A stretch of 63,796 nt of DNA, filler included, from Hausera hauseri (Eukaryota): assembly GCA_046269625.1 (NCBI GenBank). It is 11 parts of 11 records of this genome, joined end to end, with 100 filler letters (N's around TTAATTAATTAA, not from the genome) between each part and the next. Parts side by side here need not be neighbours in the genome. Positions count along the whole stretch, not along the records: positions 49,904 to 54,014 come from JBJURY010754208.1; positions 54,115 to 59,398 come from JBJURY010290503.1; 9 more parts are not named here. One strand, written 5' to 3'. How positions within the stretch are numbered: position 1 is the first letter of the stretch; each line of letters starts with the position of its first letter. A program made the translations under genes and the position numbers. Under the pieces are notes generated by a model. The model saw only the letters and a list, made by a program, of their open reading frames with translations, did no database searches and was not told the DNA's origin. Positions 1 through 59,398 of this stretch are shown here, one piece after another.

Positions 1-3000
1 AATGGTAACTGGGCCAGACGGTTAGCTACTGTATATAGCTCGTATTCTTCAGTTGATAATTCATGGCGGTCTTTGAAAAGCTTGTTTATGTCACGGAGTA
101 TTGGAATTATTTTATTAGTGGTTAAATAGGGGTGTTCTGCTATTGAGCCTACTCCTTGCGCTATCAAAGCTATAATTATCTGCGTTTCTTCTGAGAGTAC
201 GTCAAGCGGAGAATAAATCTCTTCCTTTATGTAATTGGTGATTTCTTTGTTCTGAGCTATTAACTGTATATAATGGTGATTCAATGTTGGCTCTCTCGCA
301 TAGATCTCTAAGTTTAATTGAACTATACCATCAAATTTTAACCATTCTGTTGTTTGATCATAATTCTTAATAAAAATTTGATTTTATTGTTTATCTTCTT
401 GTAGTCTTTTTCTCTCATAATGTTCTACTTGTCGAGATAGTGATAAGTATGGGTTCGGCACGGGGTTTGGGGATTCATTTGATTCTATTCGTCTGCGGAA
501 ATTTTCATCTGTAGGGTCAAATTTTCCTTATCGCTATCAGATAACAAAGGTTTATTAATTGATATTTCCAGCATTCTTGCTAAGGTTCGGCGTTTTATAT
601 ATTTGGGTTTAATGGTTGGAACTTCTTCTGTTATAGTGTGTCCTTCAGTTGGAGTAATCTCTTCGTCTGTATTTGATGGTTCGGACGTCTTCATATGAAA
701 CATTAAATTCACTAGGATCAGTAATAGTAACCACATAGATGAAATTCCCTGGTTAGTATCTATTGTTGGAGATGCGGCGTCAGCCGTTCCGAATAATATG
801 AATGGTATTATGAGTATTACTAATGTTGAGTAGGTGAATCCGTCACTAATTATGCTATATTAATTTTCTTTTAATGAGTGGTTGGGAGTCAGTAATTTCC
901 TTCTGCTGTTTGTTAGTTTATTTTTATACCTATAGATTCATCCTGGCTGACGTTGTCGTTTATCACAGTTTGGTCGTAATTGGCATTTGGCTGAGATGTC
1001 TTGTGTTGTGTCTTAGCTATCATTGGTGGTTCTTGTCAGTATTTTCTTCTGTCTCATCGTTGCTACACACGATGAATCTTCACATTCTTCCATTTTAGAT
1101 CATTTTTAATATAGTAGATGCGCATGATTCGTTTCTCAAAGGCGCTCAATCGTCGTAAATTCCTCGCCATATCGGTTATCTCATCCCTTTCCTTATCTGA
1201 TCTTAATCGACGGTTACTTATTAATCTCTCCCATTCTTCTTTAAATGGTTTAGCTATTTCTTCGCTATCGCTTAACTGGCAAAATATTAGACTATATCGT
1301 AGTGCATCTAACCTACCTCAAAATCCGCTTGAATTTACCGTGTCGAACTTATCTGTATCTTCGTAACCCGGCGGGATTCTTGGTGTATTTACATTCCGAT
1401 TCAAATAATTATTCCGTACTATTCGTGCTTCCTCTTCTTCATAGGCATCTATTTCATCCTGAGTAAGTTTGTTTTTTTATTGCCATAAGTGTATATATCA
1501 TCCAGCAATCATGAAGGAGTCCGAGTGGACTTTACTTACCAACACTTCGCCGTAACTCTTAAATAGTCCTAGACATCTATCGGCCATTTTCATAATTCTT
1601 TTTGGGGGTTGATTTGCTATTAGCTCTGGAAAATTTTCCTGTAAGAAATTAATTACATCCCCTGCGGAAAATAATAATGGTTTTCCTCGTAGAAAAGGAC
1701 TAATTAACATACGTTCTCTGCGGTTCCTGACGAATAAAGGGTGAAATTTAGTTTTATTTCCATACACTATGCTTTGTTCGTGGGTTCATCGGTATTTTTC
1801 TATTAATGGGTCGAATGACCGAAGGAAACTTATTATTTGTAATGTAGAATGGGTCTCTAGTTGAGTTCTTAGTAGTGATTTATGTTTTGGACATTACATC
1901 ATTCCAAGGCCCTATCATGATATTGGTAGGTTTTAACCATATGGGTTGTAGGGACATTTCCATTAAAAGTTTTTGAAGCAAACAAAATCCCTCGTCGTAT
2001 GCTTTGGTTCGAAAACCATTCGATGTGTGGGATAATGACGTATTGGCTTAAATTTTATATGAAGTATACAAGATTCTAGCTATCAGTAGCAATTGGTATC
2101 TATAGTCCGATTCTTTAAAGTTTATTCCAGTTTCCTGTTTTTGCCGATCGAAATATGATTCATATAAAATTGTGTATAATTTCATAAAGTCGTTTTGTTC
2201 CTCGTTGGGTAATTGAACTATAATACGTACTAACACTAAGAAATTTATAATGTCTCCATCCCATTCATGCGCGGTTTCTCTAAATATGCGAAGTATGGTA
2301 GTAGGTTGGTCGTCTTTAGGCATGTTGATGAGCTGGTTGTCTTTTGATTTAATATCGTTTAGCCATCGCTAGGTTCTATTTGCTATAAAACGTAACTTTT
2401 TAATGGTGTTCGAAACACTTTGATCCTGGGGACAGATTTTCAGCGAGTTAGTGATAGTTTGAAGTAATGGCTGATACACTAATGTATGCACTACTCTGTC
2501 CAATTCCTCTCGGGCCGGCGGGAGACTGCTTGGATGTGTTCTTAGAGCATTTATTATCCTAAAGTAAGGAATTATCTTGTTGGCCATCGTGTAATCGTAT
2601 TCACCTGTAGAAACTATTACGTTTGCTATGGTGGTTAGTATGATATTGGTTTAGGGTGTTTCCGTTATTGGCGTCATTTTAAGATATTCTTGTATCACCT
2701 CTATTAAATCTGACGCAAGTAGCCATCGGATTTTGTATGGTTTATTTTCACTTCCATTTCTGTTTAGTCCATCTATGGCGTCTTGTATGGATTCAGGTAA
2801 TTCTTTCCATCCCCTAGTATTAGAGTAGCCTTTCCGTAGTATTTTTTTTAGGGAAATAACATTTTTGTTTCTTTGGAGGGGTTTGATGTTCAATTTCGAT
2901 ACTTTTCCTGTTTTTATATCGATTTGGGTATAATACCCTTCTTTCTGTATGAGAGAAGAAACAGTCGTGATGCACTTTTCCCTTTTGGTATTATCTTACC

Positions 3001-12953: not shown

Positions 12954-15900
12954 TTATATGCTTATTTTATCATCCAGAATATGCCTCTTATCATCCATCC
13001 AATCTAGGCTTTTCTTCTGTAGTGTTACTGTCTCAATGTTATGAGCCCTAAACTGGATCCTTCTCTTCTCTGATATTAAGTGAGTTTGCTCATGCAGAAC
13101 TTTATCATAGCCATCGAAGCTGATCTTCTTGGCTAAGGTCATCCTTTGAACCCCTTTGGCCCACTTCTTTACTGGGTCACATACATTTTGGACCTAAGAG
13201 CTACAGATCTCGAGATGATGGCCCCAATCATCTCTTCTTTGAATTTCCCAAGGATTTTCTTGTTGTTAATTGAATAGTTAGGATGCTCCTTCGGATAGTC
13301 AGACATATCCATATGCTGACCCAACTTAGCAAAGTCCTCATAAGTGTCCTCCATATGGATCTGATAGATGAACTTATCAGTATCCATGCACATCAGCTGT
13401 ATAGACTTGAATGTGGGGACCGTGATATCGTGGAGGAACTTGTACATCAAGGTCTTTGGCAGATGTAGTATTGTCATACTCACATATATGGGCTTGTTGA
13501 ACTCAAACGATGTTTTCAGCATATGGATGCTGACCAAGTTCTTTGCATATATGGCGCTGCTGTGGAAGTTGGGCTTGGCAATGAGCTTCTTTGCCCTCTT
13601 CCACTCACAGACCACCTCGATGTTGATCCTGTTGCGGATATTCTCCATAGTCTTGCCAAAAACTTGAACTTGTCCTTCTCAAAGTAGTTCTTGGAATTGG
13701 TCCGTAGCTTTCTATTGATGTCTGCATATGGCTGCAGCCACATGGACTGGCTGAACTTCAGGGTCCGACGGATCTTCGTAATGCGGAGTCAATTTCTGGC
13801 AGTTTGCTGTAGATTTATGTAGTGGACTACATACCTCTTTCTACTATCCATGTGGCAGAGCAGCTTTCTATGCTTTCCATGGGGCGGACGCTTGATCTCT
13901 GGCAGGAAAGGCAGCTGTTGATGCCTTGTGTGGATAGAAGGCGGATATTCCATATTCACCTCCAGTATGTAGCCCGTATCTCCACTGGGATCCAAGTCCA
14001 ATATAGGGATGTTTTCGGGATGCTCGACCCACTTGAAGTAATGCTGAGTCCATTTCTGGCAGCTTGCTGGAGATTTATGTTGTGGATGGATCATACTGGG
14101 CCATATACTTGTTGTTGGCCTCACTATACCGGTGAATGACCTGGCATATTCTGCTTCTAATGCCTCTCTGGATCACGAGTATCATGTCATAATTCTTTAT
14201 GATTTGCAGCCTAATATCGGTATAGCGCAGCATTGCTGTCCAACTCATTCCTGGAGCCGTAAATAAATGAGCTGGGTCCAATGCATGACTCTTCATCATA
14301 ACATCCCTGGAACTCTCAAAGACATGGGTCAGAAGCAGCACGTCCGTCTTGAGGTATATATCGTTCTATTCCCCAATTGTCATGCATTGAAATGTATGCC
14401 AGACGTTCTCAGCATGCTGGTAGTCTATATCACTAATATCGGTATCAGAGAGGATATTGTAAAAATTTCTTTTGGCCGGCAATGAGGTCTCATCTAGTGT
14501 TTTCCATGAGGTTATATAGTAATAGGGAAACACGCCTTTTCTTTTAACAAGATCAAATGCGGTGGGGTAGAACCGCTTCGTCTCCTTGAGTTCTTCTGCA
14601 GGGAGGTATCTCACTAAACTGTCAAGTGAAGACGACATGAAACGAAAACTGTCTATGAAGCGGAGCCTGATTTTCCCAACATGCTTCGTAAATGTGATGT
14701 ACTTCTCACTGTTTGAGATCACATCAATGTTTTCTTCAATGTTTCCCAGTTCCCGAACAATGAAGTGGGAATCATAGCCACTGAAATTATGGAACATTAC
14801 AGGCACATATGTACTTGTTTTGCAGCGTTGATTGTAGTTGTTGCATGCCGCACCTCGATATGTGCCTGTAAAATGGCCGTGATCCTTGACTTTATGATCC
14901 TCCTTAGTGAAGGACTTGACGCACAACTAACATGCTATTGCCTTGCGCCATTCTTCTTCTTGCTTATTCGACATGCTCATGTCGTCCTTATGCTGTTGCA
15001 ACATATCTCCAAGCCTATGAGCCATATCTTCAAGTCGATTCATGAAATGAGCTGCTGCATTTGGACCCCTGAATAGATATGGTTTACTGTCAAGTCCTTT
15101 GGCATACATGCAAGATGGCGAAAGTTCATTATAGTGGTATGCCGTTGTGCTATTGTGTTGCGGAGTAGGACTGCAGCTTTGTACTGGACGCAGAATAGTC
15201 CAAAAGTCGCAATAGATGACTATTGGGACCTTGTTCTTCTTCTCGAACTTCATGAATTCAGTGTAGTCCTCCTTGGGAAATTCTGGGCTGATACAATAAT
15301 TATTTTTGCAGTACATCTTGTGCTCTGCAAGTTTGTCCACTGCTGAATCATCACTGAAATAGGACAAGCATCGTTTACATATTTCGATTCTTGTTGTGTT
15401 TCGTAATTTGGGATCTGACTAGACGCTCAAAGTCTTTGATCCAAACATAATGTTTCTTTTCTCCATCGTCTAGTAGGGGCAGATCCCTATAATCTTCCAA
15501 TTCAGTATCGCATATCTGCAGGGGATACAATTTGTCTTCCTCGTCCAATCAAAAGATATTGATGGACACGTTGTTGACTTTTCTAAATTTTTGACTTCAT
15601 CTGTGGATGGTGGTAACTTAATACATTGGAAGTCATAGTTGTGCTGCATGTTCTGATATAGTGAAACACGGTAAACATGCTTTTGATCCGTTACGAGTCT
15701 TGATAGAATGGCATACGTGAAACACATGTTGTCGCTATTATGGACATTGATGCATGCTTTTTTATTAATGATCCATTCAGGGAGCTAAATATATGAACTG
15801 CCCTGCATGGGGGAGTACTTGTTCACATACACAAGAAATCTCTTGATTGTTGCCAGAGTCCAGCCGCTCTTCTTTTTCTGGCTTTCCCCGGCTTCACGGA

Positions 15901-16754
15901 TCAGATTCTCGTGCGCCTCTTGCATCAATTCTGCTATATAGGTGTTTTGTAATATGGGCCTACTTTCGGTCTTGAAGGCTCTATTGGATTCTTCGCCATC
16001 AATTTTGATGTATGTGGCCTCCAGCTTCATATTCACTTTAAGGACTTTGAGCTCAGCCATGTTGTTCTGAAGAATTCCCTCTGTCGCTTCCTTTGTGTAT
16101 AAAAGGAAGTCTTGGAGAGTTGTTTGACCAGTTGCATCAATAACATATCTTCGGACTTTTCTCTTTAATACTGCCGCATCAACTAACCACTGTTTTTGAC
16201 TTTTTGATGGAGCGTTTTCTACTGCTGCTATGCGTTGTAGTCCTGCATCGGGCTTATGCTGCTGCTCATTAAAAATGACCTTCTTTGACTTTGACATGAA
16301 GTCTGTCGAATGGGCAATTTGATCTTCGAAAAACTGCATGTATTCTTCATCACATACAGCCTCACATCCTGGGCAAATATAATCGAGGATCCTATTGGCA
16401 GTTCTGAGGTTTGTATATTGCACATGTGCAATACACGTATGAACTGCATCTTTGATTTTGCTTAGGCATGGAAGTCATTATTGGCATAGTGGGATTGAAT
16501 ATCTGTTTTTTCGACTTGGTGAAGGAAATCAGGTGCTGTTTATGGGTATCGTAAAAGTCCTCATAATTGGATGGGCACACTACTTCACGTGTAGGGCATA
16601 AATAATACTCAGCCCTGTTGTAAAGATGGCTGAAATATTTTTTCTTAATGTTGTTAAAATTATCAGGCTCATGGATTTGAGCCAAGCACTCTTTTTATAG
16701 ATAGCACATCTAAAAATCAATTATTTGAGGAGCATAGATAAAAAATCTCACTAT
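12954..16754 (-). pseudogene. Protein-primed family B DNA polymerase (Cys/His repeats, OTU-like, EndoVII-like, exonuclease and polymerase regions), multiply frameshifted
   Basis: DNMCFTYAIL...HYVWIK (OTU-like), KDHGHFTGTYRGAAC (EndoVII-like), FHNFSGYD, FIDSFRFM, RKGVFPY, FGKTMENIR, MDTD, GKFKEE, ALRSKMY, DDKR. Motif A is deleted and motif B truncated. Confidence 0.93.
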
Positions 16755-16948
16755 TCGTGGAAGTGATTTTGAAAATAATGAAATATATAGCCATGTCAAC
16801 ACACACTGCCTCATTTATGGATTTTTTTAATTTTGAATTTTCGAACATTCTAGAATACTTTGTTTTAATGCATCAAATAAATTAAATGTATGTCGGGCGC
16901 CAATTTCCTTATAGGTTTTCATACATGGGGAATCTAATGACGTCATTA
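12954..16948 (-). mobile_element. Polinton/Maverick-like element arm: inner terminal-repeat segment plus pPolB
   Basis: pPolB pseudogene, plus 16860-16948 homologous to C10 57181-57283 and to the reverse complement of C6 32972-33062. Confidence 0.85.
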
Positions 16949-32732: not shown

Positions 32733-32854
32733 TTGCCTAGCACTTTATGGATCGATAGTGTTCCATGTGCACTATCGATCGGCACATGTGCAAATCGATT
32801 TATCGATCCAACCCCCCCGGGGGGTTGAGCCAGAAGCGGTATTTTCCTCCTACT
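32733..32854 (+). repeat. Outer end of a Polinton-like terminal repeat, ending ...CTACT
   Basis: Homologous to C10 58463-58560 (GCACTTTATGGATCGATAGTG...ATCGATTTATCGA...GCCAGAA...TTTTC..CTACT). Homology stops exactly at CTACT, consistent with the 5'-AG...CT-3' termini of Polintons. Confidence 0.75.
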
Positions 32855-33062
32855 AAAGCCATATATGGCGAATCAGAATATGACGTCAGATATTCGAATT
32901 AGAGCTCAAAAGTCGAGTATTTAGCTATTTGAACTTGAAAACGCGGTAAAGCATACATTATTCGAAGAATCTAATGACGTCATTCGTTTCCGCATGTATG
33001 GAAACCTTTCAAATTTGGCGCAAACATAAGTTTAATTTATTTGATGCATTAAAACGAAGTGT
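32855..33062 (+). repeat. Inner segment of a Polinton-like terminal repeat, upstream of pPolB
   Basis: Reverse complement of C10 57181-57400 (for example CATTATTCGAAGAATCTAATGACG and TTGATGCATTAAAAC are shared). Confidence 0.8.
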
Positions 33063-33176: not shown

Positions 33177-35412
33177 ATGGTGAGATTTTTATTTGTGCTC
33201 CTGAACTAATTGGTTGATTTTTAGATATGCAATCTATGCAAAGAGTGCTAGGCTCAAATCGACCAGCCTGAAAATTGTCACAACATTATGAAGAATTATT
33301 TCAGCCCATAAACAACACCTGATTTCCTTTGCCAAGTCGAAAAAATAAATATTCAATACCACTATGTCAATAATGACTTCCAGGCCTAAGCAAAATCAAA
33401 GATGCAGTTCATACCTGTATTGCACATGTGCAATACACAACCCTCAGAACTGTCATAATACTATGATGAGCTATTATGGACACAAATTCAATAGGTTCCT
33501 CTATTATATTTGCCCAGAATGTGAGACTGTATGTGATGGAGAATACATGCAGTTTTACGAAGATTATATTGCCAATTTCACAGACTTTACGTCAAAGTCA
33601 AAGAAGGCCATCTTTAATGAGCAGCAGCATAAAATTACTTCGGCAGCACAGCCAGTTGTACAGCTTGCTTCTAAAGTACCTTCAGATGTACAGCCTGCTG
33701 CAGCAGCAAGGCCCGATGCAAGACTAAAATGAACAGCTGCAGTAGCAGCAGATTCTCCATCAAAAAGCCAAAGACAGCGGCCAGTTGATGCGGCACATTA
33801 AAGAGAAATGTCCGCAGATATGTTATTGATGCAACTGATCAAACAGCCTTCCAAGATTTCCTCTTATACACAAAGGAAGAGACAGAAGGAATTCTTCAGG
33901 ACAACATGGCTGAGCTCAAAGCCCTTAAAGTGAATATGAAAATGAAGGCCACTTACATTAATGTTGATAGCAAAGAATCCAATATGGCCTTCAATACCAA
34001 AAATAGGACCATATTGGAAAACACCAATATAATAGAATGGCTGCAATAGGAGCACGAGAAGCTGATATGTGAACCCGGGGAGAACCAGAATAAGAAGAGC
34101 GGATGGACTCTGGTAATCTTCAAGAGATTTATTATATATGTGCACATGTACTCCCCCATGCAGGGTAGTTCATATATTCAGCTCCCTTAATGGATCATTA
34201 ATAAAAAAGCATGCATCAATGTCCATAATAACGACAATATATGTTTCATGTATGCCATTCTATTAAAACTCGTAACGGATTCAAATCATGCTTCACGAGT
34301 TTGGCTATATAAGGATGTGCAGCACAACTATGACTTCCAATGTATTAAGTTCCCTCCATCCATAGATGAAGTCAAAAAATTTGGAAAAGTCAACAACATG
34401 TCCATGAATATCTTTGGATTGCATGAGGAGAACAAATTCGATCCCCTGCATATATGCGATACTGAATTGAAAGATCATAGGGATCTGCTCCTACTAGATG
34501 ATGGAGAAAAGAAACATTATGTTTGGATCAAAAACTTTCAGCGTCTAATAAGATCCAAAATTACGAAACATCATGGACAAATAGAAATATGTAAACGATG
34601 CTTGTCCCATTTCAGCGGCGATGTAGCTGTATTGATGCTTGCAGAGCACAATATGTACTACAATAACAATTTTTGTATCAGGTCAGAATTTCCCAAGGAG
34701 GATTACATTGAATTCAAGGAGTTCGAGAAGAAGATTAAGGTCGCAATAGTCATCTCTTGCGACATTGAAGCGATCCCGCGTCCAGTTCAGAGTTGCAGCC
34801 CTAATCCACAACATAGAAGCACAAGGGTATATCAATATCATAAGCTCTCATCATATTGCATGTATTCCAAAGGACTAGACGGTGAACCATACCTATTCAG
34901 GGGTTCAGGCGCAGAAGCTCATTTCATAAAACAACTTGAAGATATAACTAATAAAAGCAAGAATAATGGCGCAAGGCAACAGTATGTTGCTTGTGCGACA
35001 AGTTTTTCACTAAGGATATCATAAGGTCAGAGATCACTGTTATTTTACAGGCACATATCGAGGCCAGGCATGCAACAACTGCAGTCTAAGCTGCAGAACA
35101 TGTACATATGTGCCTGTAGTATTCCACAATCTCTGGCTATGATTCTAATTTCATAGACCGATAATTAGGTAACGTTGAAGGAAACATTAGTGTGATCCCG
35201 AACAGTGAAGAAAAATACGTCACCTTTACGAAGCATGTCGTCAAAGTTCGACTTCGCTTCATAAACAGCTTCTGCTTCATATCCTCTTCACTTGACAGTT
35301 TAGTGAAGAACCTCCCTGCAGAAAAACTCAAGGAAACGAAGCGGTTCTTCCCCACTATATTTGACCTAGTTAAAAGGAAAGGAGTGTTTCTTTATGATTA
35401 CATCACATCATA
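33177..35412 (+). pseudogene. Second Polinton-like pPolB copy, 3'-truncated within the exonuclease region; ATG followed by a 45-nt intron (33180-33224)
   Basis: Colinear homologue of the C3 pPolB: DNICFMYAIL, HYVWIKNF, CKRCL, CDIE, RDHCYFTGTYRG, RKGVFLYDYI; contains stops and frameshifts. Confidence 0.92.
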
Positions 35413-36989: not shown

Positions 36990-39570
36990 AAAATAAGAAT
37001 TCCCTTTATAGTCACTTTGTCTTGTATTTTGTTGATTATCCGTGTTAAGTGTTTGAACAATCATACTTATAAGTTGGTCGGTGTCTTTGGTGCGTTTCTT
37101 TCGTGTTGCGTTAGGTATGCTTGGGTGGATAGATGTTTCCCTTTTCCATTTTGTATTTATTTTTGCTCCCTTCTTTGTTTAGGCTATTACGGATTTTTCG
37201 AATTTCTTCGTCCTTCGCTTGTTCTTTAGCTATAGCCTCATGTGTAATTGGTATAAACAAAAATATGTGCATTTCTTCATTGACTTCTGCATTATCTACT
37301 TCATCTGTTATGGTTTGAATCAAATCGATCATTTTATAGTACTCGTATAAAATGTCCTCCACTAATGGATCTTTATAGTCACTTGGTCTTGTATTTTGTT
37401 GATTATTCTTGTTAAGTGTTTGAATAATCATACTTATAAGTTGGTCTGTATTTTTGGTGCGCTTCCTTTGTGTTGCTTTGAGTATACCTTGATGAACATT
37501 TTGTGAATAATATTCCTTCAGATCTTGCATGTTCTCATAATCAAGATTAGAGTGATCATTATAATCTTGGTCAATATCTCTTTCTTGAAGTCTTGACAAA
37601 AAATCTGCATTAGCATTTGCTTTTCCTTGTCGATATTTTATCAAAATTTCTAGATCCTGGATTTCTGCAGCCCATTTCTTTAATTTTCGCCTAGTATCCC
37701 GTTGCTTCATTAACCATTGTAGAGGTTTTTGATCCGTATATAATATTATTTCTCATCCAGTAATGTAATATCTAAAATATCGTAAAGCATATACTATGGT
37801 ATAACATTCTCTTTCAATTGTTGACCATCTACGTTGCGTTTCACTTAATGTATTACTGAGACATGCTATTATTCCTTCGCGTGGTCTATCAGGAACTGAT
37901 TGTCCTAAGACTGCTCCTATCGCATAGCCACTGGCATCGGTCATGATTATATAAGGGTAATTGGGATCAGGAAACTGTAATATTGGTGGGGAAGTTAAGA
38001 CTTGTTTTAGGACTTAGAATGATCTCTGATGTATTTCTTCCCAATTCCATGCTGTTCCTTTCTTTATTCATTCCACTAGTGGTTTAACTATACTTGTAAA
38101 ATTATATACAAACTTTCTATAATAATTAGCCATTTCTAACAATCTTTGCAATTCCTTAAGACATTTAGGTGGTTTTAACTTTTTAAGTTTTTCCACATTT
38201 CTAGGATCGGGTTGGATACCTTTACTCGAAACTATATGTCCAAGAAAAGTAACCGTGTTTTCCGCAAACTCACATTTCTTCATTTTAATCTTTAAGTGGG
38301 CTTATTTCAATCTATCAAATACTTGAGAAAGATGTTTTAAGTGCTGTTCGAAGTTTTCGGAAAATATTATTACGTCATCTATATATTCCATGCAGTGGGT
38401 TAACCCTTGCAATACAAAATTCATGCATCTTTGAAATGTAGCGGGTGCCCCTGTTAGACCAAAAGACATAACATTAAATTCCCATAATCCGGTTCCTGTA
38501 GAAAAGGCTGTTTTTTGTTTGTCCTCCTCAGCTACTTCTACCTGCCAAAATCCACACTGTAAATCTAGAGTAGTAAATATAGTGGCATTTCGTAAGGCCG
38601 TCAACATTTCATCTATTTTTGGTAATGGATAATTGTCTTTCTTCGTGACGTTATTTACTGCTCTGAAATCTACACAAAATCGTTGAGTTCCGTCTTTCTT
38701 CTGTACTAATACTACTGGAGATGTCTATGGAGAGAAGCTTGGTCGGGTGATACAGTGTTCCACCATCTGTGCTATTTGTCTGTCGCATTCTTCCTTCTTA
38801 ACTTCAGCCATTCTGTATGGATTTTGTTTAATGGGATAAGTATTCTCTGTAATTATGTTGTATTGAATAACATTAGTTCTACCAATATGATTATCATTCA
38901 TAGCTATGATATCACGATTCTTATGGAACAATTGTAACAATTTCTTTAATTGATAAGGGGTTAAGTCGCCATCCTTAAATTTAATATTCTCATCTTCTAC
39001 TAAAAACGTTGCTGCGCATACTTTAACTGGTTGTAATTGTCCTAAATTAAGATTTTGTCGTAATCTGATTTCTTTCTTATTAATGCTTTCTATTGGTAAC
39101 TCCAGACATTGTACTCCTTTTGGTACAAATAAAATATATTGTAGAATCTTATATTTTTCATTATTGTACAAATTCGGTTCAAACATACAAGTTTGTTTGT
39201 GGTATTGAGATGGTATTGTTAACATTACTACTATCTGTTGTTGTGGTCTGATAGTGACGTTATGGGTTAAGGTCATACTAATCTCCTCTATTGGCAGATT
39301 AGTCATTGTATATTTCAGAGTCTTTGTCGATAAATCCATTGAAAGTCCTGTTATTTGTGATAGTACGTCCATTCCTATTACTAAAGGTACCGGCAATATT
39401 TTATCATCAACCACAAATAAGGTAATTGTATAAAGAATATCATCGAATCTTATCTGGATGTTTATTTTTCCTAAGAATTGTACTTGTGTGGAATTGGCTG
39501 CTGCTATTACTATATCGCTTGGCATAATTGCTCCCTTTTGATCGTCAGTTAGATACGAGTGGAATCAATG
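36990..39570 (-). mobile_element. Degenerate Gypsy pol (protease C-half, spacer, RT, RNase H, start of integrase)
   Basis: LVIGMDVL; PIKQNPYR; KKDGTQRFCVDFR; LDLQCGFWQV; FGLTGAPATFQR; YIDD; FLGHIVS; TDASGYAIGAVL; NANADFLSR. Confidence 0.95.
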
Positions 39571-45352: not shown

Positions 45353-47486
45353 GTAATAATAGCATCATCAAATTTTCAGCAACACTTAAAGGATCTGCAA
45401 GATCTTTTTGATAGATGCGAGATAATGGGTCTAAAGATAAATCCCAAGAAATGTTCGTTTGCACAAGCAGAGGTAGATTTCCTCGGACATAAGGTGGACA
45501 GACATGGTGTAAGACCTCAGGACAAGCTTTTAGGAAAAATAAGAGATTTTCCTAAACCAAGTACAGTTAGAGAACTACGTCAGTTCCTAGGTTTAGCAAA
45601 CTATTATCGGCGATTCATAAAGGATTTTAGTAAAATTGCGAAACCTTTGTATGAGTTATTACGTGAAGATTTAGATAAAGTCATCTGGATCAGCGAATGC
45701 CAAAAAGCTTTCAAATATTTAAGAGATTATTAACAGCTCCTATATTAATCCATCCCGACATGACCAATCCATTTATTTTGGCAACAGATGCAAGTGATTA
45801 TGGAATAGGAGCAGTATTATCACAGAACGGTGAAGATGGAAAAGAACACCCTGTGGCCTATGCTTCAACAAAACTTAATAAACATCAGAAGAAATACTCT
45901 GTAATAGAAAGAGTTATTAGCGGTGATATTTGCCTTAGAAGTATTTTCACCGTACATTAGTGAAAATAATCCGCTTATGATTTATACAGACCATAGACCA
46001 CTTCAATGGCTAAAACAGCATGAAAATCCAAATAATAGACTCCTACAATGGGGGCTAAAGTTACAACCATATACATTGAATTTTCAGTATAAACCTGGCA
46101 CGCGAAATGCTAATGGCGATTACCTATCGAGACTACCAGATAAAATAGTAGTATGGATGGATCAACTGAGAAGATTAAGATGAATCAAGATGAAGATATG
46201 GAAATAAGAGCCATTAGGAAATATATAAAAGAGAAAACTATACCAGCTGACAGAGAATTTACCGTCACCTGGTGCGACTCAGCGAAGCGTATGAAGAGAA
46301 GGAAGGATTTCTATATTTTATTAGTCAAAACGGACCTGCATTAGTAATTCCTAAGAAAAATAGAGCAGTTTTACTAACCCAATACCACGATGGATTACTT
46401 GGAGGACACCAATCAGCCAATAAGACACTAAACAAGTTAAAATGAAAATACTTTTGGCCAACGATAATGAAAGACGTACAAGAATGGTGTGAGAGCTGCA
46501 AGCTGTGTGCTATCCGGAAAAACACAGGATCAAAATTCAAAGCACCATTAAAGGTATGGGGTAACCCTCCAGCACCATTCGAGTTTACCGCGATGGATAT
46601 AACGGGGCCATTACCGTTAACACGAAATGGAAATAAATATATCTTAGTATTTATCGATTATTTTACCCGATGGGTGGTTGCTTTACCAATGCCCGATATA
46701 AAGGCAGATACAATTGCTGAAAGATTTGTGGAAAACATACTGTTCAACTATGGAGCTCCAAGAATTCTCTTGACTGATCAAGCATCAAATTTAACTGGAA
46801 CAGTAATGCAGTCCATATATGATATTTTGAAAATATTAAAGTTGCGATCAACGCCCGGACATCCGGAGAATAATGGAATGGTTGAAAGGTATATTGGAGA
46901 TCTGAAAGGAAAGTTACAAACGGTAGTAAATACTAGGCAAGATGATTGGGATGAATACATCAATGCATGTGTTTTCGTCAATCGGACATCAGTCCATGAG
47001 GCTACCAAAGAGACACCCTTCTATTTAATGTATTTGCGGGACGCAAGATTACCAATCGATCTGGCTTTTAACGTAAACCCCATTTCACATTTAATGGAAA
47101 TAGAAGATTATAAACAGTTAATACAAGAACGACTTCAGTTAGCCTACAAAATGATTGGCGATAATCAAAAAGATTATAAATTAAAGTATAAGAAGTATTA
47201 TGACCAAAAGACTAAACAGCCTAAAATCAAGATAGGCGACCAAGTAATGTTGTATTGTCCAGCAATTAAAAAAGGTAAAACGTCTAAGTTAGATAGACCA
47301 TATAAAGGACCATATGAGGTGGAGAAAGTAGATCTACCGAATATTTGTTTGAAGAAAAATAATACTTCTGTAAAAGTACACATTAATAGATGTAAGCCCG
47401 CTGCCAAAGAGAGCAAATTAAGAAAAGGTGAAAAAGAATCGGTATGTAGCATTAGCGAAAAAGTAATTGAAAAAGACTACAAATAA
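45353..47486 (+). mobile_element. Gypsy pol (RT end, RNase H, integrase), frameshifted
   Basis: KCSF..VDFLGH, FLGLANYYRRFI, TDASDYGIGAVLSQ, TDHRPLQWL, HDGLLGGH..CKLC, MDITGPLP, LTDQASN, NGMVERY, and a GPY C-terminal module. Confidence 0.96.
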
Positions 47487-50208: not shown

Positions 50209-52025
50209 ATGACTGCGCTATCTGATTTGATATGCTTTTATTTCCTCTTAGGCATGGGACACTGGGAAATATTGAGTTTACTTAATGAGGATGGCTATAT
50301 TATTAGTATGTCGACACTGCGCAGGTATCTTAAGTCCTTGGGGTTGTTCAGGCGAAAAGCCCACTCTGACCTGCTGGAAGTCGCTCTCTTCCTTCAGGAG
50401 CAATTAAACCAGCACGGGATGCTTCATGGTTACAGAATAATGCATCTGAAATGCATCCAGTCTGGCTTGGTGGTGTCACAAAGAACTGTCCGGCATCTGC
50501 TCAAAATCCTAGATCCCGAAGGAGTACAGCTGAGGCTACGGAATCGTCTGAGTCGACGTCTGTACAGAAACCCAGGTCCCAACTTCATGTGGCATGTCGA
50601 TTCATATGACAAACTAAAACCATATGGAATCTGTATCAATGGGGCTGTTGATGGATTTTTGTGTATGGTCATGTGGCTACATGCTTACAGCACAAGTAGC
50701 AATCGCCGGGTTATTGCTGGGTACTTCATTGATGAAGTGGAAAACAGGATCGGCACTCCCACGCGCATCAGGTCAGACCTGGGTACGGAGAACTGTTCAG
50801 TGGAGCAGATGCAGATATTTTTACGAAGTAACCATGGAGACAAATTTTCTCAGAGATGCTACATTACTGGCTCAAGTAATCACAACCAAAGGATTGAACA
50901 GTGGTGGGGATTTTTAAGAAAACAACATGCACAATATTGGATCAATGCCTTTCACGATTTAAAGGACCTGGACCATTTTACAGGGGATTTCCTTGATAAA
51001 AGTTTAATCCAGTTCACCTGCCTGGAAATAATTGAGGTAAACTAAGTCATGCTTTTTGTTTGAAAACATGTTGGATTGGTTCAGTAGCTAATAAATTGCT
51101 AACTTCATTCAATTCAATAAATTAGCAGTGTAGTATTCATTATACACTGCTGTATTGGATTCTTTAACAATCATTCCTTTCCATACCCTGTATATATTTC
51201 TGACATAATTCCAAGGGCACAATCAGCTGTGCATTTATTTAAATTAAAAATATGCATTCCTAAAATCATCTAAAGCTAAAATCAGACTTAGCAGTTAGAC
51301 TTATATAAGAGTAGCTGTCTTCTAAAAATGCAGAAAACGTGTTTACGTCACGCTCAACGGATTTATTCTGAAATGCCACCTACTGACATGTTTGAGTATC
51401 GCCCAGCCACAGTACAAAAAAGTAACACTAAAATTTGTCTATCTTTTAAGTAATTTTGTTTATTGTAGTATAAAGTGGTACCACAACTAACTGTGTTATT
51501 CTGACTTTTTTTTTTACATGTATTTATGCCATTTCAATTATCTTTATTAATATTTTTAAATGTAAACTTGTCAGAAAAAAAAACTGAAGAAATGTTGCAG
51601 TTAATTTATCAGTGTTTCTTTGCAACCTCTACAGAAAAATAAATATAAATGGTATAAACACACAATAATCACTGTAAATTAATTTATTTGTTTTCCAGAG
51701 GGAGCTGCAGCAAGTTGCTCATTTGTGGAACTGCCACAGAATTCGTGCTACCAGGAATGCTGTTTCCCCAAGTGGACGACCATTGATTCTGTACAGCTTT
51801 CCCCACCTTTTGGGCACTGAAAACTACCTCAAGACAGTATCTCATCAAAAAATACAAGCTTGTAGAGAGGAATGCCTACCGAGAGGCCCACATCCATGTG
51901 ATGAAACTGTTTTTGACATTTGTTGCCTGGCAATGTCAGAAAACTATCTACACCCACCTAATACCCCAGAAGAAGCAATTGAGCTTTACCTGTTTTTACG
52001 AGCCTACATCAGAACTCAACTGTAA
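50209..52025 (+). CDS. Spliced DDE integrase-core transposase (IS3EU-like), exons 50209-51036 and 51699-52025, 384 aa
   Basis: N-terminal HTH (ISMSTLRR.L), GYR.M, GPNFMWHVDSYDKL, IRSDLGTEN, NQRIEQWW and WNCHRI. The phase-0 GTAAAC...TTCCAG intron joins the two ORFs in frame. Confidence 0.88.
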
Positions 52026-52867: not shown

Positions 52868-54116
52868 TATATTATATAAAGTGGTATTAATTTTCTATTA
52901 CATTTTAAAGCCTCCTTTTATTACATTATGGTGGTGTAACATCCATTTAACTGGTGCCCAGCACTTTTACAACACTAATGGGAAATTAATGTTAAAGATT
53001 ACATGTAACAGAAAACATGTTTTGCAATTTCACCAAAAAACAAATGTGAAAATTAATATACACCATCACTAAGCCTGTGCTTCAGTTAAAAAGTAAAAAC
53101 AAAAAGTTGTTTTAAGTTTGTGTCATTGATTCAGTCTATTTTGAATGGAAATACTGACATCTAATCCTAAAGTGAAACACACACAAGCTCCAATAAAGAA
53201 CAAATTTATTAAATGGTAGAAGTCAGCAAACATACAAGTGCAAGTGCATGACAACTGCACTGTTTTCTTTCAAAAATGGAATACAGTACATCAAAACTGT
53301 GACAGGTCAATAACAGTATTGGTCCCATCCCCAAGAACATGTATAAAAACATGTATGCAAATTGTCTTTGCTCATACACTGAATTAAAAAAAAAGTAGGT
53401 AAATGAGGTCAATATTTCAAACAAGGAGCTTTTTTGGAAGCACCATTTTGAGTTCAAAGTTAACAAATGAATCCAGCGCTTAAGTGATAAGGTGTGAGGG
53501 GCTTATCCTATAACTTTGTAATCAACCCCTCAAAAAATGCCAGAACAGAAAAATAAACTTGGAAATGAATTTGAATTATTCTTGCAAAAACCCCTTTACT
53601 GTTACTAGTTTACGTACTCTTTCTGAAACTGAATACACCAAATCTGTGACATAATTACACAGCCAAAAAAAACAAAGAAACAAAGAAACAAACAAAAAAA
53701 AACAAGCAAAAAAAGACTGATGGGGCAGGCCAAGAAAATAGTATTGATCCCATCCACAAGAAAATTTCAAGACATCTGTATGCAAGATTTATTTTACTCA
53801 TAAACTCGAATATGGTATTTGAAATGTGAAACCTTGACATTTTGGAACAATTATTTTAAGTTGAAAATGAACTGAATAATTCAATGCTGTTACTCAGCTC
53901 TCAAATGACAAGGAATGAGGGGCCAGCCCCATACCCTGTCAACACAGCAAGAATACAAACTTCATAAGAACATTAAATCATCAATGTTTCAAACACATTC
54001 TGTTAACAAGTAGANNNNNNNNNNNNNNNNNNNNNNNNNNNNNNNNNNNNNNNNNNNNTTAATTAATTAANNNNNNNNNNNNNNNNNNNNNNNNNNNNNN
54101 NNNNNNNNNNNNNNAT

Positions 54117-54668
54117 GGATTCAGTTTCAGTATAAAGCCATGTCAATGCGTACTGAAATATCCAGAATATACAATAATTCTATTCATGAATAGAAATTGT
54201 CGCGTCATGGGATGCAAGAAATCATTTGATACTACTGTATTACCTCTGAATATTATTATCGAAATAATGCGGTCAGCCTCAGTCACTACTGATATCAAAC
54301 AATCAATTAATCTATACGGTTTATCACAGAATGTACCATGCTTTTATGGGCCTAAAATATTCCTAGCACTTCGACCAACTAATTTTGATCCATTATGTGT
54401 CAATGTTTCCCACACAGGTAGAGTTGTAATCACAGGTTTGAAAACCTTGGAATATAATGATATGGCTAAAAATGTACTAGGAAATGTATTATTATTTGTA
54501 TACTTTGCATTTTCATTTTATTTTCACGTAAAAACTGAATTACTTTGTAATACTTTTGTTGATGAAATTAATGAAACTTCCAGAAAAACACCACATATAA
54601 AATATGAATATTTATTGCATTACCACATATATTCAGTATCCACATTCCGTTATATGAAATTTTGTTAA
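54117..54668 (+). pseudogene. TBP-like protein copy 1 (5' end cut by the contig edge; degenerate motifs; reads past the position of the copy-2 stop)
   Basis: The frame is open from 54117 (GFSFSIKPCQCVLKYPEY...). Gap-free alignment to copy 2 gives 59/126 identities by hand; motifs FYGPKIFLAL and VSHTGRVVITGLK. Confidence 0.75.
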
Positions 54669-55793
54669 ACCTTGACATAATTCATCCATAACTTTTATGT
54701 TGATTGAAAGAGAAATGAGCATTGTCATTATCTTAAAATATTTTCTGTATGCACGGTATTTGATTAGTTCAGGTACTTCATATTCCGAAGTAGCTATTTC
54801 ATACCCATTCATTTCAATGAAATTAACTTTCATTTTCTTAACAGTTTCCTAAAATATTTGCAAATTCATTTAATTTAATTAAATACATAAATTTGAGCAG
54901 CGCAATGTGTGTCGACTGAATGATTACCATAGGCAAAAGACATTTTAGAAACACTAACAAAATTATTGTAGTGTGAAATACACTGTTCATAATACCTTAT
55001 GTGACATTTTCGGGATAAAAAAATAAGCACGAATTCACCCAGTACGGGATAAGTACTAATTTCGGATTTTATACTAATTTCGGATATAATATAATAACCG
55101 ATTCACTCTATGGGTGATAAAAGTTAAGTACCGATTCATCAATTCGTAAAATTCACTTTTGTTTAAACGCATAAATTTAAAAGGAGGGTATATGCTTTTG
55201 TTCCAGAACTTCCATTTTTCCTCTACTATCAATTTTCTTTATAACAAGTAAGCAAAAACATTTATTAACGCACAAAACGTGATAGAAATATAATAAGTGC
55301 CCCTGTAAGAATACTACATGCAAGCAATACATTTCTCTGTCTTCCTTCACGTTCATGTTTAATGTCTCTTAGACATATTGTTCGGACTACAAGTTCTATG
55401 TATTCTTACTCTGTTATGAGCTGATACCGTTCTAATGCTATGGGGAATTGAATACAATCAATTTTCCATCACATATCTCATTTGTAAGTTGTTTAATTTC
55501 AGTTTCTAAGTCCATTTTTTAAAACTATGTATTTAACGTTTTGTTTATCAAAAAGTGAAGAATAACAATAACAAGATTTGTTAACAGAACATTTAACAGC
55601 ACTTAATTTCAATAATTTTCCAAGTGGGTTGAATTTCCCCGTCTTTTTCTTTTAATCCTCGGATATATTTTAATGTAAGCTATTGTATATTGGTATAAAT
55701 CCATTGTCTTTATATTACAGCCCATTAAATCTTTGAATTTTACGGCGTCTGATCGAAAATGATACTGTATCTCATCATTTAACTTTTTAGGGC

Positions 55794-56253
55794 TTATTTC
55801 AAGTGCCTGTAATTCTGAAGACAGTTTGCTGTAGTTATTATCCCTAATACCTTTAACATAGTATCCAATCTAAGTATGTCGAATACGTACTGGATCTGTA
55901 GTTGAATTGTTCTCTTACATTTTAGAAAACTCATTTTGTATCCAATATAGGTTCTTGGAGCTCCCATTTGTGCCATATTTGCTTGGGCAATCTTTAACTC
56001 TAGGCTTTTGAACAATTGGTGGGATGTCATGGGCTTCACACCTACCATTCTGATCCCATCATCGCCATAAGGATATGTAATATCCAATTGCTTTTTCAAC
56101 TTTCTCATATATTCGATCAGATATTCAGTCTTTCTCTTACAGTTTGAAAAGCTCAGCACTTCATCAATAGCTCGACCAAGTGACAAATCAGAATTTTCAA
56201 TGTTGCAATTCTAAAAATAGATAAAGACAGGAAAAGCAGAAAAAACTTACCAT
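55794..56253 (-). CDS. Unknown 139-aa protein; ATG-only first coding exon (56253-56251), 40-nt intron (56250-56211), exon 56210-55794
   Basis: ATG|GTAAGT...TTTTTAG|AATTGC is in frame with ORF 56186-55794. Confidence 0.6.
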
Positions 56254-56378
56254 TCGCCAAAAAGATTTTTGAAGTAATGAAACATATAACCATGCCAACG
56301 CGCACTGTCTTATGCCGATCAATCAGATTTGTCCAATTTGAATTTGACAAGTCAGTTGTACCTTTCATTTTTACAAAT

Positions 56379-56807
56379 ATGCTGAGCAACATCAACTACA
56401 AAGGTTTCACTACAGTTCCCTTGGATGAATTCAAATTTGGATTTAGATCTAAACAGTGTGTTTTACGATACCCTAAATATATGACTGTATTCTTCCCCAC
56501 TGGAAAATGCCGAATAATGGGATGTAAAAAGCCCATTGAGTCATGCAGTTTGCCTTACAATATACCACTTGAGGGAATCCAATCAAGTATAGTGACTTGT
56601 GATTTTGGCGAGCCAATAGATATAAACAGATTGGCTCAGAATAATCCAAGTCTCTATGAACCAAAATTATTTCCTGCCCTTAGATTGACTTGCTATAATC
56701 GTCTATGTGTAAATGTGTTTCATACCGGTAAAATAGTCATTACCGGTTGGAAAGATTTGAATTATAGTAATTTTGTTAGTTGTGTTTTGGATAATATATT
56801 ATTATAG
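56379..56807 (+). CDS. Miniature TBP-like protein copy 2 (142 aa from Met 56379), intronless and intact
   Basis: Two TBP half-repeats: LSNINY..VFFPTGKCRIMGCK and IQSSIVTCDFGEPIDINRLA..YEPKLFPAL..VNVFHTGKIVITGWK (compare TBP YEPELFPGL..IFVSGKVVLTGAK). Confidence 0.85.
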   Translation: MLSNINYKGFTTVPLDEFKFGFRSKQCVLRYPKYMTVFFPTGKCRIMGCKKPIESCSLPYNIPLEGIQSSIVTCDFGEPIDINRLAQNNPSLYEPKLFPALRLTCYNRLCVNVFHTGKIVITGWKDLNYSNFVSCVLDNILL

Positions 56808-56952
56808 ACTTATTTCTCTTTTTCAGAAAAGCAACACGTGTGTATACAACAACTTTATTAACATGACAACAATAACAAACTATACGACATATACATGATC
56901 AATCCTGAATATCACCCTCCTCCTCTTCTTCTTCGATAATATCTATTTTAAT

Positions 56953-57135
56953 TTAGTTATCACCACATTCACTGTGTCGGCAATCTTCGCAGCAGTCCTC
57001 GAACAATTCAGTATCTTCAATCGGATCAGCTGCATCCAACTGAATACATGTATATTCTGTAACATCTTCTTCCAAGTACTCATCATCTTGTTTGCTCATA
57101 TCAATTATTGGTTTATTATCCATTATGTAGGTCAT
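56953..57135 (-). CDS. Small acidic Cys-containing ORF adjacent to the terminal repeat
   Basis: 60 aa, very D/E-rich, ATG start just inside the TIR boundary. Confidence 0.4.
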   Translation of the reverse strand: MTYIMDNKPIIDMSKQDDEYLEEDVTEYTCIQLDAADPIEDTELFEDCCEDCRHSECGDN

Positions 57136-57180
57136 GTTCTACATTTAACACTTGTTTATACACTAAAGTTAAATGCACGT

Positions 57181-58560
57181 TTGTTTTAATGCATCAATTA
57201 AATACATTGCGGCGCCAAATTCAAAATAGATTTTCGCCAAATTCAAATAGGTTTTTAACCTTGGGGAATTGAATGCCGTCATTAGATTCTTCGAATAATG
57301 CATGCTTGACCTAGTTTTCGAGTTAGAATAGCTAGGTATTCGACTTGTAAGCTTGAATTCGAATACCTGATGCCATATTCCAATTCAACATACATGACTT
57401 CCTATCCCGGCCCGATATTAGATTTATTGATTTCCGCTTCACTGGGCTTTAAATGCAGATTTTGCTTAATTCGAAATATTAATTTTGTGCCTATATAGTA
57501 CATTTTCATAGAATAAATTTTATGCACAGGGGGTTTTCGAATATGAGGAATCGATTCCCGCTTTTAGATTTTTCGAATAGTTCGATATTCGAGCGAAAAA
57601 ATATTCGAATTTCAAATATTCGACTCGAGATTCAAGATCGCCATAGTCGATTTCCTGTCTGTCTCCGCTCAATGTTATATCGAATTTTGCTACCTTAGGA
57701 CTTAAAAAACCTATGGGTTGTCTGGCCCAGTTGCACTTTGAATCGAAATTAATCAATAACTAATCGATAAATTTAAATTCTAACTTCACATTCATATACT
57801 ACACCATGTTTGTGTTCGAATGCACCCGGTCACATGTCCTAATCATCAATATTGGAAGTATCGGAAATCCGGTATTACTTGTTTTTGCACTGCATAGTAT
57901 ATATCAAGGTGCATCTCGATGTGCTCTGTCTTCCTGCACTTGACTCCATAAATCCTACGCTGAACAGTGACCAAAGTGTGAAAAGTGAAAAAGTGCCTTA
58001 GCAACCGCATCCAATAGAACACCTCACCCGAGTATTGCACTGATCGAAAGTACATCAAGTACTGCACCTACCAGTATGTGTCATATTGATATTATTGATT
58101 TGCAATTCATGACGGAAAGGCCTATGGGAAGTCTGGCCCACTTGGCAATTTTTCGAAAACCAATCAATATATTTAAATTGTAACTGCACATACACACAGT
58201 GCATGATGTGTGCTTCCGAATGCATCCTGTGCTGTGCCCAAATAATCAATATTAGGAATATCGGAAATTCGATATTATTGATTTTTGTACACTTGCACAT
58301 GTGCTGCACACCTGCACTGTGCACCAGTCGATGTGCACTGCTGTGCCCTATCGACTAGCACTTTGCCCCGATCGATTCGATCAATACTGCACTGTGCAGC
58401 GATCGATTTGTGAAAAGCGCAAAAGTGCCCTTAGCAACGGTACCTAGCGGCACCGTTGTTAGGCACTTTATGGATCGATAGTGCTGCATTTGCAATATCG
58501 ATTTATCGACGCGCACACCCACCCCGGGAGTTGGGCCAGAATTCCCATTTTCTCGCTACT
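57181..58560. repeat. About 1.4-kb Polinton-like terminal inverted repeat ending ...CTACT, with an internal ~400-bp duplication and hairpins
   Basis: The inner part is homologous to the pPolB-upstream DNA of C3 and C6, and the outer part to C6 32733-32854. 57817-58010 resembles 58217-58440. Confidence 0.75.
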
Positions 58561-58987
58561 TTTGTAAAATTTCTTTAGTTGATTGTTGTACTGTAAAAAA
58601 TACGATTTTCAAATTTATTCAAATCAATCAATAATCATGGCAACACTAATCGTCTAGGATTCATGACAGGTGATCTGCAATGGGGACAACTGAATAATCT
58701 ATCAGCACAATCCATACACAATGTATGACCACATTCGAGTACGCAATTGACCATTCGGTCTAAACATACAATGCAAATCTAAAATGAGAGTTATTGTGGA
58801 TATTCATCAGTAATTTACATTTGTTCTATCAGTTGTTTGTGGAGTCCTTTCCTCTTGTTCTGTATTGTTGTCAGATTGGTGTTGCCTATTGTAATATAAT
58901 TCGAATTCTGACCTTAGTTCTTTATTTGTACAAAATTGAATCGCTGTCTTGTTAAATTTGTTGACTTGATAAATATTTGCAGAATCC

Positions 58988-59398
58988 TTAATAAGTTGTC
59001 GTATCCATCTTCTTAACCGTGAAACATTTTCCTGAATTTAAATAATCAATTAAAATCAGCATCACGATATTTACCTTATTGCCTGTTGACATCCTCTGGA
59101 ATATCAAAGACAGTGTCGTATCTCCAGCATTGTTCTCATGATTTACATTTTTCGTTTCTGTAATAAGATCATCGACTAGGTCATCATACTCTAATTCTAT
59201 AGCAACCATTAAAGGGGAACTGTCATTCGCATTACACAATTGAATCAATTCAGATGCACATTTGGACTGCAAAATAAGATCACAAAATCTCATTTTATTA
59301 TCTTTAATCAATGCAGTTAATATTGATTCCCCATTTGCCATACATTTCCATTTTGGATTATGCATTTTCAAAATATCCGTAAAATATTCCACATCATT
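58988..59398 (-). CDS. Ankyrin-repeat protein fragment
   Basis: GESILTAL, DSSPLMVAI and VNHENNAGDTTLSL ankyrin motifs; 5' end at the contig edge. Confidence 0.7.
   Translation of the reverse strand, partial: NDVEYFTDILKMHNPKWKCMANGESILTALIKDNKMRFCDLILQSKCASELIQLCNANDSSPLMVAIELEYDDLVDDLITETKNVNHENNAGDTTLSLIFQRMSTGNKVNIVMLILIDYLNSGKCFTVKKMDTTTY

Follow-up and report, generated by a model that had tools for sequence, protein, structure and literature searches.

A Polinton-borne family of miniature TBPs and an accompanying promoter-like word, traced from Hausera hauseri

Introduction

Mavericks or Polintons (adintoviruses) are the closest described relatives of an element found on a 63,796-nucleotide stretch of DNA from Hausera hauseri (assembly GCA_046269625.1), hereafter the window, which consists of 11 contigs joined by N spacers. 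One of these contigs, C10 (positions 54115-59398), carries two small genes resembling TBP. We report that they belong to a Polinton-borne family of mini-TBPs with a matching promoter-like word, TATAAAC; family and word are well supported as real, and from them we infer a function in late transcription.

Like Mavericks and Polintons, the elements described here combine pPolB, an RVE integrase with a chromo domain, an A32-type ATPase, an adenain-type protease and a capsid-like gene, all as intronless open reading frames (ORFs). They also appear to have a long terminal repeat ending ...CTACT, where the (ACT)2 that Barreat and Katzourakis (2021, PMC8097293) report among end motifs of vertebrate Mavericks is matched with one mismatch. 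They differ in TBP, which does not appear in the list of eight core genes in Starrett et al. (2021, PMC8502044). The first-pass annotation of this DNA had not counted TBP in the Polinton gene set, and this stands for those core genes; it has to be qualified by the Fig. 5 legend of the same paper, where TBP is a label for MELD viruses with adintovirus-like PolB that section 3.4 does not discuss. This label may stand for the mini-TBP family or for another.

In TBP the L5.1 Phe of each lobe is a key DNA contact, two C-lobe glutamates contact TFIIB, and a basic patch, mostly on N-lobe helix H2, is the site for TFIIA, TAF1, Brf1/2 and Mot1/BTAF1 (Ravarani et al. 2020, PMC7221094). According to section 11 of that paper, the first Glu is conserved in about 40% of viral TBPs, and a viral TFIIB partner accompanies them in almost all cases. 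Herpesvirus ORF24 is described as reading TATTWAA late promoters (PMC12529657). No description of a Polinton TBP family or of the TATAAAC word was found in the literature searched, Repbase and subscription journals lying outside the search, and the timing of Polinton capsid genes is not treated there. TBP and TATA have no mention in the main text of PMC11071296, PMC11161782, PMC11131425, 10.64898/2026.10.13.758929 or 10.64898/2026.06.19.733378.

The mini-TBP genes and their family

The two genes of C10 are as follows.

56379..56807, plus strand: mini-TBP ORF2, 142 aa, intronless, open frame (Pfam and structural model)
54117..54668, plus strand: mini-TBP ORF1, 5′-truncated and drifted, likely in a second element (TBP homology to about 54494)

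ORF2 matches the Pfam TBP family (PF00352) at 56 bits (cut-off 22.9; E 3.7e-15), and ORF1 reaches 18.6 bits, under that cut-off (E 0.0017). ORF1 loses its 5′ end at the start of the contig; the reading frame stays open as far as a stop at 54668, and 54494 marks no more than the limit of the TBP homology. The earlier description of two TBP-like ORFs is confirmed, with a correction for ORF1, whose frame had been ended at 54494; the gap-free identity it gave for the pair, 59/126 (47%), was reproduced by alignment. Each has a closer relative elsewhere, ORF1 in protein P0024 (77%) and ORF2 in P0001 (72%), and the two fall in sister subclades.

The AlphaFold2 model of ORF2, built from an 11-row alignment, has a pLDDT of 89 and is predicted to form the two-lobed saddle that the first pass had expected, with no helix of at least four residues in residues 1-75. 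Foldseek gave 44 matches at E <= 0.001, every match listed being a TBP chain; the best TBP scores Z 13.2 and the next fold Z 5.4. All 142 residues align to residues 66-236 of yeast TBP, its 171-residue core (Z 12.8, rmsd 2.5). The model is thus that of a complete TBP with both lobes, shorter by about 29 residues and with helices in the C-lobe only.

Residues were counted in 106 non-redundant short family members, the names of Ravarani et al. being assigned to alignment columns by motif. The L5.1 Phe is present in the N-lobe of 106/106 and the C-lobe of 105/106, and the C-lobe stirrup Glu pair that contacts TFIIB is kept at 101/106 and 103/106. Because the family profile favours these Phe and Glu motifs, the site was rechecked on the loci found by an N-lobe pattern, which places no selection on the stirrup: all 22 that cover it have Glu-Pro-Glu. 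Three of the four intercalating Phe are kept, the column of the first N-lobe Phe being a gap in 106/106, where the alignment is uncertain. The N-lobe helices, including the basic H2 patch, are missing in both the model and the alignment.

The window copies themselves depart from this pattern. ORF2 differs at four of 24 near-invariant positions (24, 82, 96 and 108), position 96 being one of the two TFIIB-contact positions, while 39 of 50 aligned members differ at none or one; it has both L5.1 Phe and the first stirrup Glu only. ORF1 shows several more departures, lacking the C-lobe L5.1 Phe and both Glu. Judged by these residues, both copies are likely decayed and dead.

Scanning metagenomes with the N-lobe pattern gave 43 candidate stretches, which resolve to 23 loci; a GTDB scan, with one family locus (L029) among 21, brought the number to 24. 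Searched with a profile, 1.84 billion representatives yielded 37 proteins at E <= 1e-30; at E <= 1e-10 there were 441, with ordinary TBPs among them. Named cluster members bear generic TBP names only. IMG/VR scans with TBP, capsid and ATPase alignments yielded no family member, one of them giving only full-length giant-virus-type TBPs. Three database proteins, P0085, P0172 and P0157 (376, 329 and 219 aa), have extra TBP lobes and may be artefacts or fusions.

A FastTree phylogeny of 191 sequences (200 non-redundant, nine dropped as too gapped) over 155 columns recovers the family as a clade of 140 (support 0.993), apart from the sampled cellular and giant-virus TBPs. The comparison with other TBPs proposed at the first pass thus returns a separate clade; supports around its base are 0.27-0.86, and the tree does not settle the origin of the family. 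Another proposed check, dN/dS among copies, gives 0.15-0.38 in pairs with dS 0.2-2.7, for instance 0.15 for ORF2 against L001 (dS 1.5) and 0.26 for L013 against L014 (dS 0.23), saturated and near-identical pairs being uninformative. These substitution ratios show purifying selection on the family.

The element on C10

The boundaries of the element were drawn from the following features of C10 and of two further contigs, C3 and C6.

57181..58560, no strand assigned: inferred terminal inverted repeat, about 1.38 kb, ending ...CTACT (homology boundaries and depth)
57747-57890 and 58147-58290: internal 144-nt direct repeat, 74%, inside the inferred terminal inverted repeat
32733..32854, plus strand: terminus of another family copy, ending CTACT, abutting the inner repeat of the C6 element
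32856..33060, minus strand: inner part of the terminal repeat, upstream of the C6 pPolB
33364..35411, plus strand: broken pPolB of C6
16860..16948, plus strand: inner part of the terminal repeat, upstream of the C3 pPolB (three-way alignment)
13142..16339, minus strand: broken pPolB of C3 (DNA_pol_B_2, E 2.5e-6, on one piece)
55203..55227, plus strand: terminus-like motif ending CTACT, likely the right end of ORF1's element (post hoc pattern match)

C10 57217-57400 matches C6 32856-33038 in inverted orientation (78% over 184 nt, E 2e-34), and in a three-way alignment the homology of C10 to C6 and to C3 ends at one point, 57181. Inward of this boundary, toward pPolB, C3 and C6 are still about 80% alike. 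Two arms of a terminal inverted repeat would be expected to show just this, a C10 match that stops where C3 and C6 continue. The start of C6 is a second copy of the same terminus (32740-32779 against C10 58463-58502, 90%), and in both copies the homology ends directly after CTACT.

Contigs of public runs place the same edge. In run X1 each of the 25 bins over 54115-58539 has a summed contig depth between 27,064 and 641,094, as against 189-561 for the five bins beyond; this is a measure of depth and not of copy number. The last inside bin has 641,094 and the first outside bin 408. The drop just past 58560 is about 50-fold or more, and public runs X2-X4 show the same step. As few of the aligned X1 contigs (4,995 of 74,875) are at least 99% alike to the C10 copy, this copy has diverged from most others.

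C10 holds the end of a high-copy Maverick/Polinton-type element with a sharp edge at ...CTACT 58560, and its 1.4-kb repeat is, to judge from these boundaries, a terminal inverted repeat. The terminal evidence consists of one end, ...CTACT, at two junctions, the depth step and an inner boundary common to the pPolB arms; no element in the window was seen with both of its ends, nor was a target-site duplication. The first-pass claims that the inner repeat is homologous to the DNA upstream of pPolB in C6 (inverted) and C3, and that C10 is the arm opposite pPolB in that family, are supported by the alignments, the depth step, the 57181 boundary and the repeated terminus.

One might still regard the TBP ORFs as host retrocopies or paralogs of the TRF/TLF type beside an unrelated small repeat, the window holding no element with both ends and C10 no core Polinton gene (RVE integrase, A32-type ATPase and adenain-type protease included). 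We consider this extremely improbable, because the depth plateau spans both ORFs and ends at the CTACT terminus, and because the family is a separate clade (140 sequences, support 0.993) found with Polinton core genes.

The first pass had also assigned both TBP genes to one element. Their Polinton-borne nature is retained; ORF1 and ORF2 probably belong to two nested elements, as suggested by the motif ending at 55227 and by their closer relatives elsewhere. The pattern CCAGAA...TTT...CTACT, although written post hoc, has three sites in the window (the two known ends and 55203-55227) where 0.03 are expected; it has no match in L001-L023. The long relatives have one TBP each. At C6 32733-32860 one family copy appears to be inserted into the terminal repeat of another, which together with the C10 arrangement suggests frequent nesting.

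Core genes in related loci

In the window, pPolB is found only in C3 and C6, tied to C10 through the common repeat. Among the 24 TBP loci, 11 carry core genes (ATPase, integrase, protease, capsid-like gene or pPolB); L007, L008 and L010 are near-identical, so that these 11 count as nine distinct. Ten further loci have in common an SSB-like (single-stranded DNA-binding protein) neighbour, which lies beside TBP in L005 as well, and three are short contigs without a marker. On one contig each, L005, L010 and L029 unite pPolB, RVE integrase, A32-type ATPase, capsid-like gene and TBP. The mini-TBP family thus sits inside Polinton-type elements, as had been supposed from C10.

The integrase matches Pfam rve in L005, L010, L014, L019 and L029 (E 1e-12 to 9e-17), and Pox_A32 and Peptidase_C5 were found in TBP-bearing relatives. 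The pPolB of the relatives was assigned by similarity to the C3 gene because Pfam gave only Endonuclease_7. For the capsid-like gene there are look-alikes in Atlas (0.97-0.98), of whose members 30% and 14% bear PF21738; the gene itself had no match in Pfam, in PDB sequences (profile against PDB) or in the phage collection.

The small gene beside TBP (L005:1788-2135, L004:1613-1951, L002:464-1114) models as a T7 gp2.5/Enc34-like single-stranded DNA-binding OB fold, with a Z of 8.1, near the range of chance arrangements, and a Foldseek E of 0.13. A role for this companion as a TFIIA- or TFIIB-like partner was rejected, since it models as an OB-fold SSB.

Some TBP-positive loci also carry host-like genes, namely a ubiquitin-conjugating enzyme (L010:225-719), a dual-specificity phosphatase (L009:4008-4316) and a RING finger (L019:1710-2168). 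L010 has two tandem penton-like genes in one element (5616-6671 and 6671-7684); the gene labels PZ, PW and penton are those we take to apply. L029 is a near-complete Polinton contig in a bacterial metagenome-assembled genome (MAG), with a CTACT terminus-like end at 11963, and L030 has a eukaryote-type TBP near 10001 in another bacterial MAG. The placement of both in these MAGs is likely binning contamination.

The TATAAAC word

In an unbiased count of words in the 80 nt before 68 genes, TATAAAC ranked first, with 23 occurrences against 2.1 expected. Across six cassettes it lies 48 times in sense and twice in antisense, as compared with 19:21 for TATAAAA, 14:11 for TATAAAT and 7:4 for TATAAAG. 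An ATG stands at +32..42 after 43 of 69 sites, against 22% of all positions, although this window was chosen after the data had been seen. Within 110 nt upstream the word is present for 7/8 ATPase, 5/6 PZ-like, 5/5 PW-like and 4/5 capsid-like genes, homologous sites not being independent; it is absent from all 18 TBP, 10 SSB-like and three pPolB genes.

Of the 23 TATAAAC sites in coding sequence, 22 fall within the final 120 nt of the preceding gene, where 16% would be expected. They use two reading frames, and Ile-Asn pairs are written as TATAAAC in 11/22 cases in these gene-end zones and in 1/39 elsewhere. TATAAA is a minor polyadenylation hexamer, and a 3′-end signal, uninformative on TBP, would suit this position near gene ends, as it would the L010 site at 10010, which has no listed downstream ORF on its strand. 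However, the spacing to the following ATG has its peak at 32-42 nt, whereas that to the previous stop spans -106 to +93, and TATAAAC is also found before genes upstream of which no gene on the same strand ends (L001, L010 1990 and C10 57160). A polyadenylation-type signal is thus very improbable.

Eight TBP-positive loci contain 59 copies of TATAAAC against 25.2 expected, with an ATG at +32..42 in 35 of them; 16 pPolB-related viral contigs with no TBP match in the available DNA contain 66 against 63.5 expected, with such an ATG in 10. The ATPases of the TBP-positive elements are 57-66% identical to the first. Over the whole window the word is not enriched (16 against 15.9 expected), and C10 has the following copy and variant.

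57153..57160, minus strand: promoter-like word TATAAACA, 37 nt before the ATG of an acidic 56-aa ORF
55542..55549, minus strand: one-mismatch variant of the promoter word, with an ATG 34 nt downstream (25-codon ORF)

In L002 the place that corresponds to the variant, after the SSB-like gene, holds a TATAAAC site. The word also points to genes of 60-80 aa (L010:3936-4130, L019 near 2849, and the minus strands of L002 and L015); among these are a lysine-rich gene that follows the ATPase and another, with Met-Gly-Ala at its start, that precedes the integrase.

A proposed role in late transcription

We lean towards reading the mini-TBP as a late-gene TBP, predicted to bind TATAAAC(A), that would recruit host TFIIB and Pol II. 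Host factors would first transcribe pPolB, the SSB-like gene and the mini-TBP, all of which are without TATAAAC. The mini-TBP might then bind TATAAAC about 30-40 nt before the ATGs of small genes and of those for the ATPase and the capsid module; host TFIIB would dock on the acidic stirrup, which is intact in the C-lobe, and Pol II would start on the packaging and capsid genes. Host TFIIB is proposed as the partner because the elements themselves yielded none. Having lost its N-lobe helices, the protein would lack the surface for TFIIA, TAF1, Brf1/2 and Mot1/BTAF1 and so escape those regulators. The TBP N-lobe reads the 3′ half of the TATA box, which is where TATAAAC departs from the host consensus, and the rebuilt N-lobe may account for the C at position 7. 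That this amounts to a lineage-wide early-to-late switch, run by one TBP of 145 aa (the smallest natural two-lobed TBP in the set compared) through a TATAAAC box of its own and coupled directly to host TFIIB and Pol II, we put at even chances.

Several points weigh against a private late-gene reader. The integrase has TATAAAC in only 1/6 cases, five pentons carry it at mixed distances or as variants, and L009, a TBP-positive locus of 5.3 kb with no core genes, is without it. TBP-positive core-gene elements look like one clade and the controls are distant and partial, so that TBP and TATAAAC may be unrelated marks of that clade; as the contrast is one evolutionary event and not 8 against 16, its Fisher p of 3e-7 is overstated. 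The title of PDB entry 1qn3 indicates that host-type TBP can bind a TATA variant with C at position 7, in which case the word needs no private reader. Loss of the other N-lobe Phe and of the C-lobe strand-1 Asn could weaken DNA binding, and a basic residue at the second stirrup position occurs only in the two window ORFs (2/106). TFIIB had no Pfam match in the 115 ORFs scanned from partial elements, but since no locus is complete a divergent TFIIB may be present. Lastly, L009 against L012 gives a dN/dS of 1.2, on very few changes.

The kept TFIIB-contact acids and lost activator-side helices could equip a decoy or repressor, which would titrate host TFIIB or occupy host TATA promoters while host TBP, able to bind the C variant by the 1qn3 title, reads TATAAAC. 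Such a decoy would leave unexplained why an AT-rich lineage should take C instead of A/T at position 7 only in the presence of TBP, and why TBP, SSB-like and pPolB genes avoid the word; we regard it as unlikely, and on account of the promoter word tentatively favour the element's own factor. A general helper that boosts the whole element without sequence preference, for instance when host TBP is limiting or inhibited, with TATAAAC a lineage habit read by either TBP, would agree with both L5.1 Phe being kept as in host TBP and with the TBP-positive elements being one clade, in which co-occurrence is possibly a single event. This too is doubtful, the word being confined to one gene class and held at the DNA level in upstream coding ends.

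Other features of the window

Three further features complete the survey of C10 and its flank.

56953..57123, minus strand: acidic ORF of 56 aa with a Cys tail, convergent on TBP (without a Pfam match)
55599..55938, minus strand: SSB-like homolog broken by a stop and a frameshift (tblastn E 3e-9 to L002:464-1114)
58988-59398: ankyrin-repeat fragment in the flank beyond the terminus (Ank_2 E 2e-5); the flank itself looks multi-copy

The broken SSB-like copy sits in the same place as in L002; the SSB-like family profile missed it, and only tblastn with the L002 gene detected it. Upstream of pPolB the inner terminal repeat holds palindromes TGACGTCA at 32881-32888, 32975-32982 and 16938-16945, presumably of the CRE/ATF type, with one-off variants at the corresponding places in C10; by their position they are possibly an early promoter. 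Other contigs have, at 8939-9871, 19587-20549, 37111-39525, 45425-47486 and 50209-51045, pol fragments of retrotransposon type (recognized by eye), a 7TM receptor gene without introns and an ORF with an rva_4 integrase core.

Significance and comparison with known systems

A dedicated factor with a matching promoter word offers a direct test for a virus-like late phase in Polintons. If the proposal is true, it describes an orthogonal promoter-recognition module and is direct evidence that virion genes follow a regulated programme in elements of which no particles have been seen; an orthogonal TBP-promoter pair is a possible yield. As a natural minimal TBP, the protein would set the functions in TFIIB and DNA contact apart from the surface for TFIIA, TAF1 and Mot1, and so bears on what TBP needs for Pol II initiation. 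TATAAAC is also a handy marker of small unannotated genes in mini-TBP elements.

With cellular TBP (PF00352; PDB 1ytb, 1cdw and 9k3b) the mini-TBP shares the two-lobed saddle, both L5.1 Phe, the Phe after the stirrup, the N-lobe strand-1 Asn and the Glu-Pro-Glu TFIIB stirrup. It differs in a core about 29 residues shorter, at about 25% identity, with no N-terminal extension; in its model it is without the N-lobe helices, and it has lost one N-lobe Phe and the C-lobe strand-1 Asn.

Nucleocytoviricota TBPs, as described by Ravarani et al., are likewise virus-borne, keep the DNA-facing Phe and have lost the N-lobe regulator patch. Unlike the mini-TBP, which keeps the TFIIB-contact acids and for which no TFIIB was found, they mostly lose these acids and have a TFIIB of their own. 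No RNA polymerase gene was seen on the mini-TBP contigs examined, which are shorter than 15 kb, and the family does not group with the sampled giant-virus TBPs in FastTree.

ORF24 of KSHV, a beta/gamma-herpesvirus protein, would be alike in the model proposed here as a viral TBP acting with host Pol II on a variant TATA at late virion genes, and is by analogy a working precedent for variant TATA words of late genes being read by a viral TBP. It differs, as described in PMC12529657, in being multi-domain, in working within a six-factor complex, in binding Pol II directly and in being modelled as incompatible with TFIIB, whereas the mini-TBP is a bare 145-aa core with its TFIIB surface intact.

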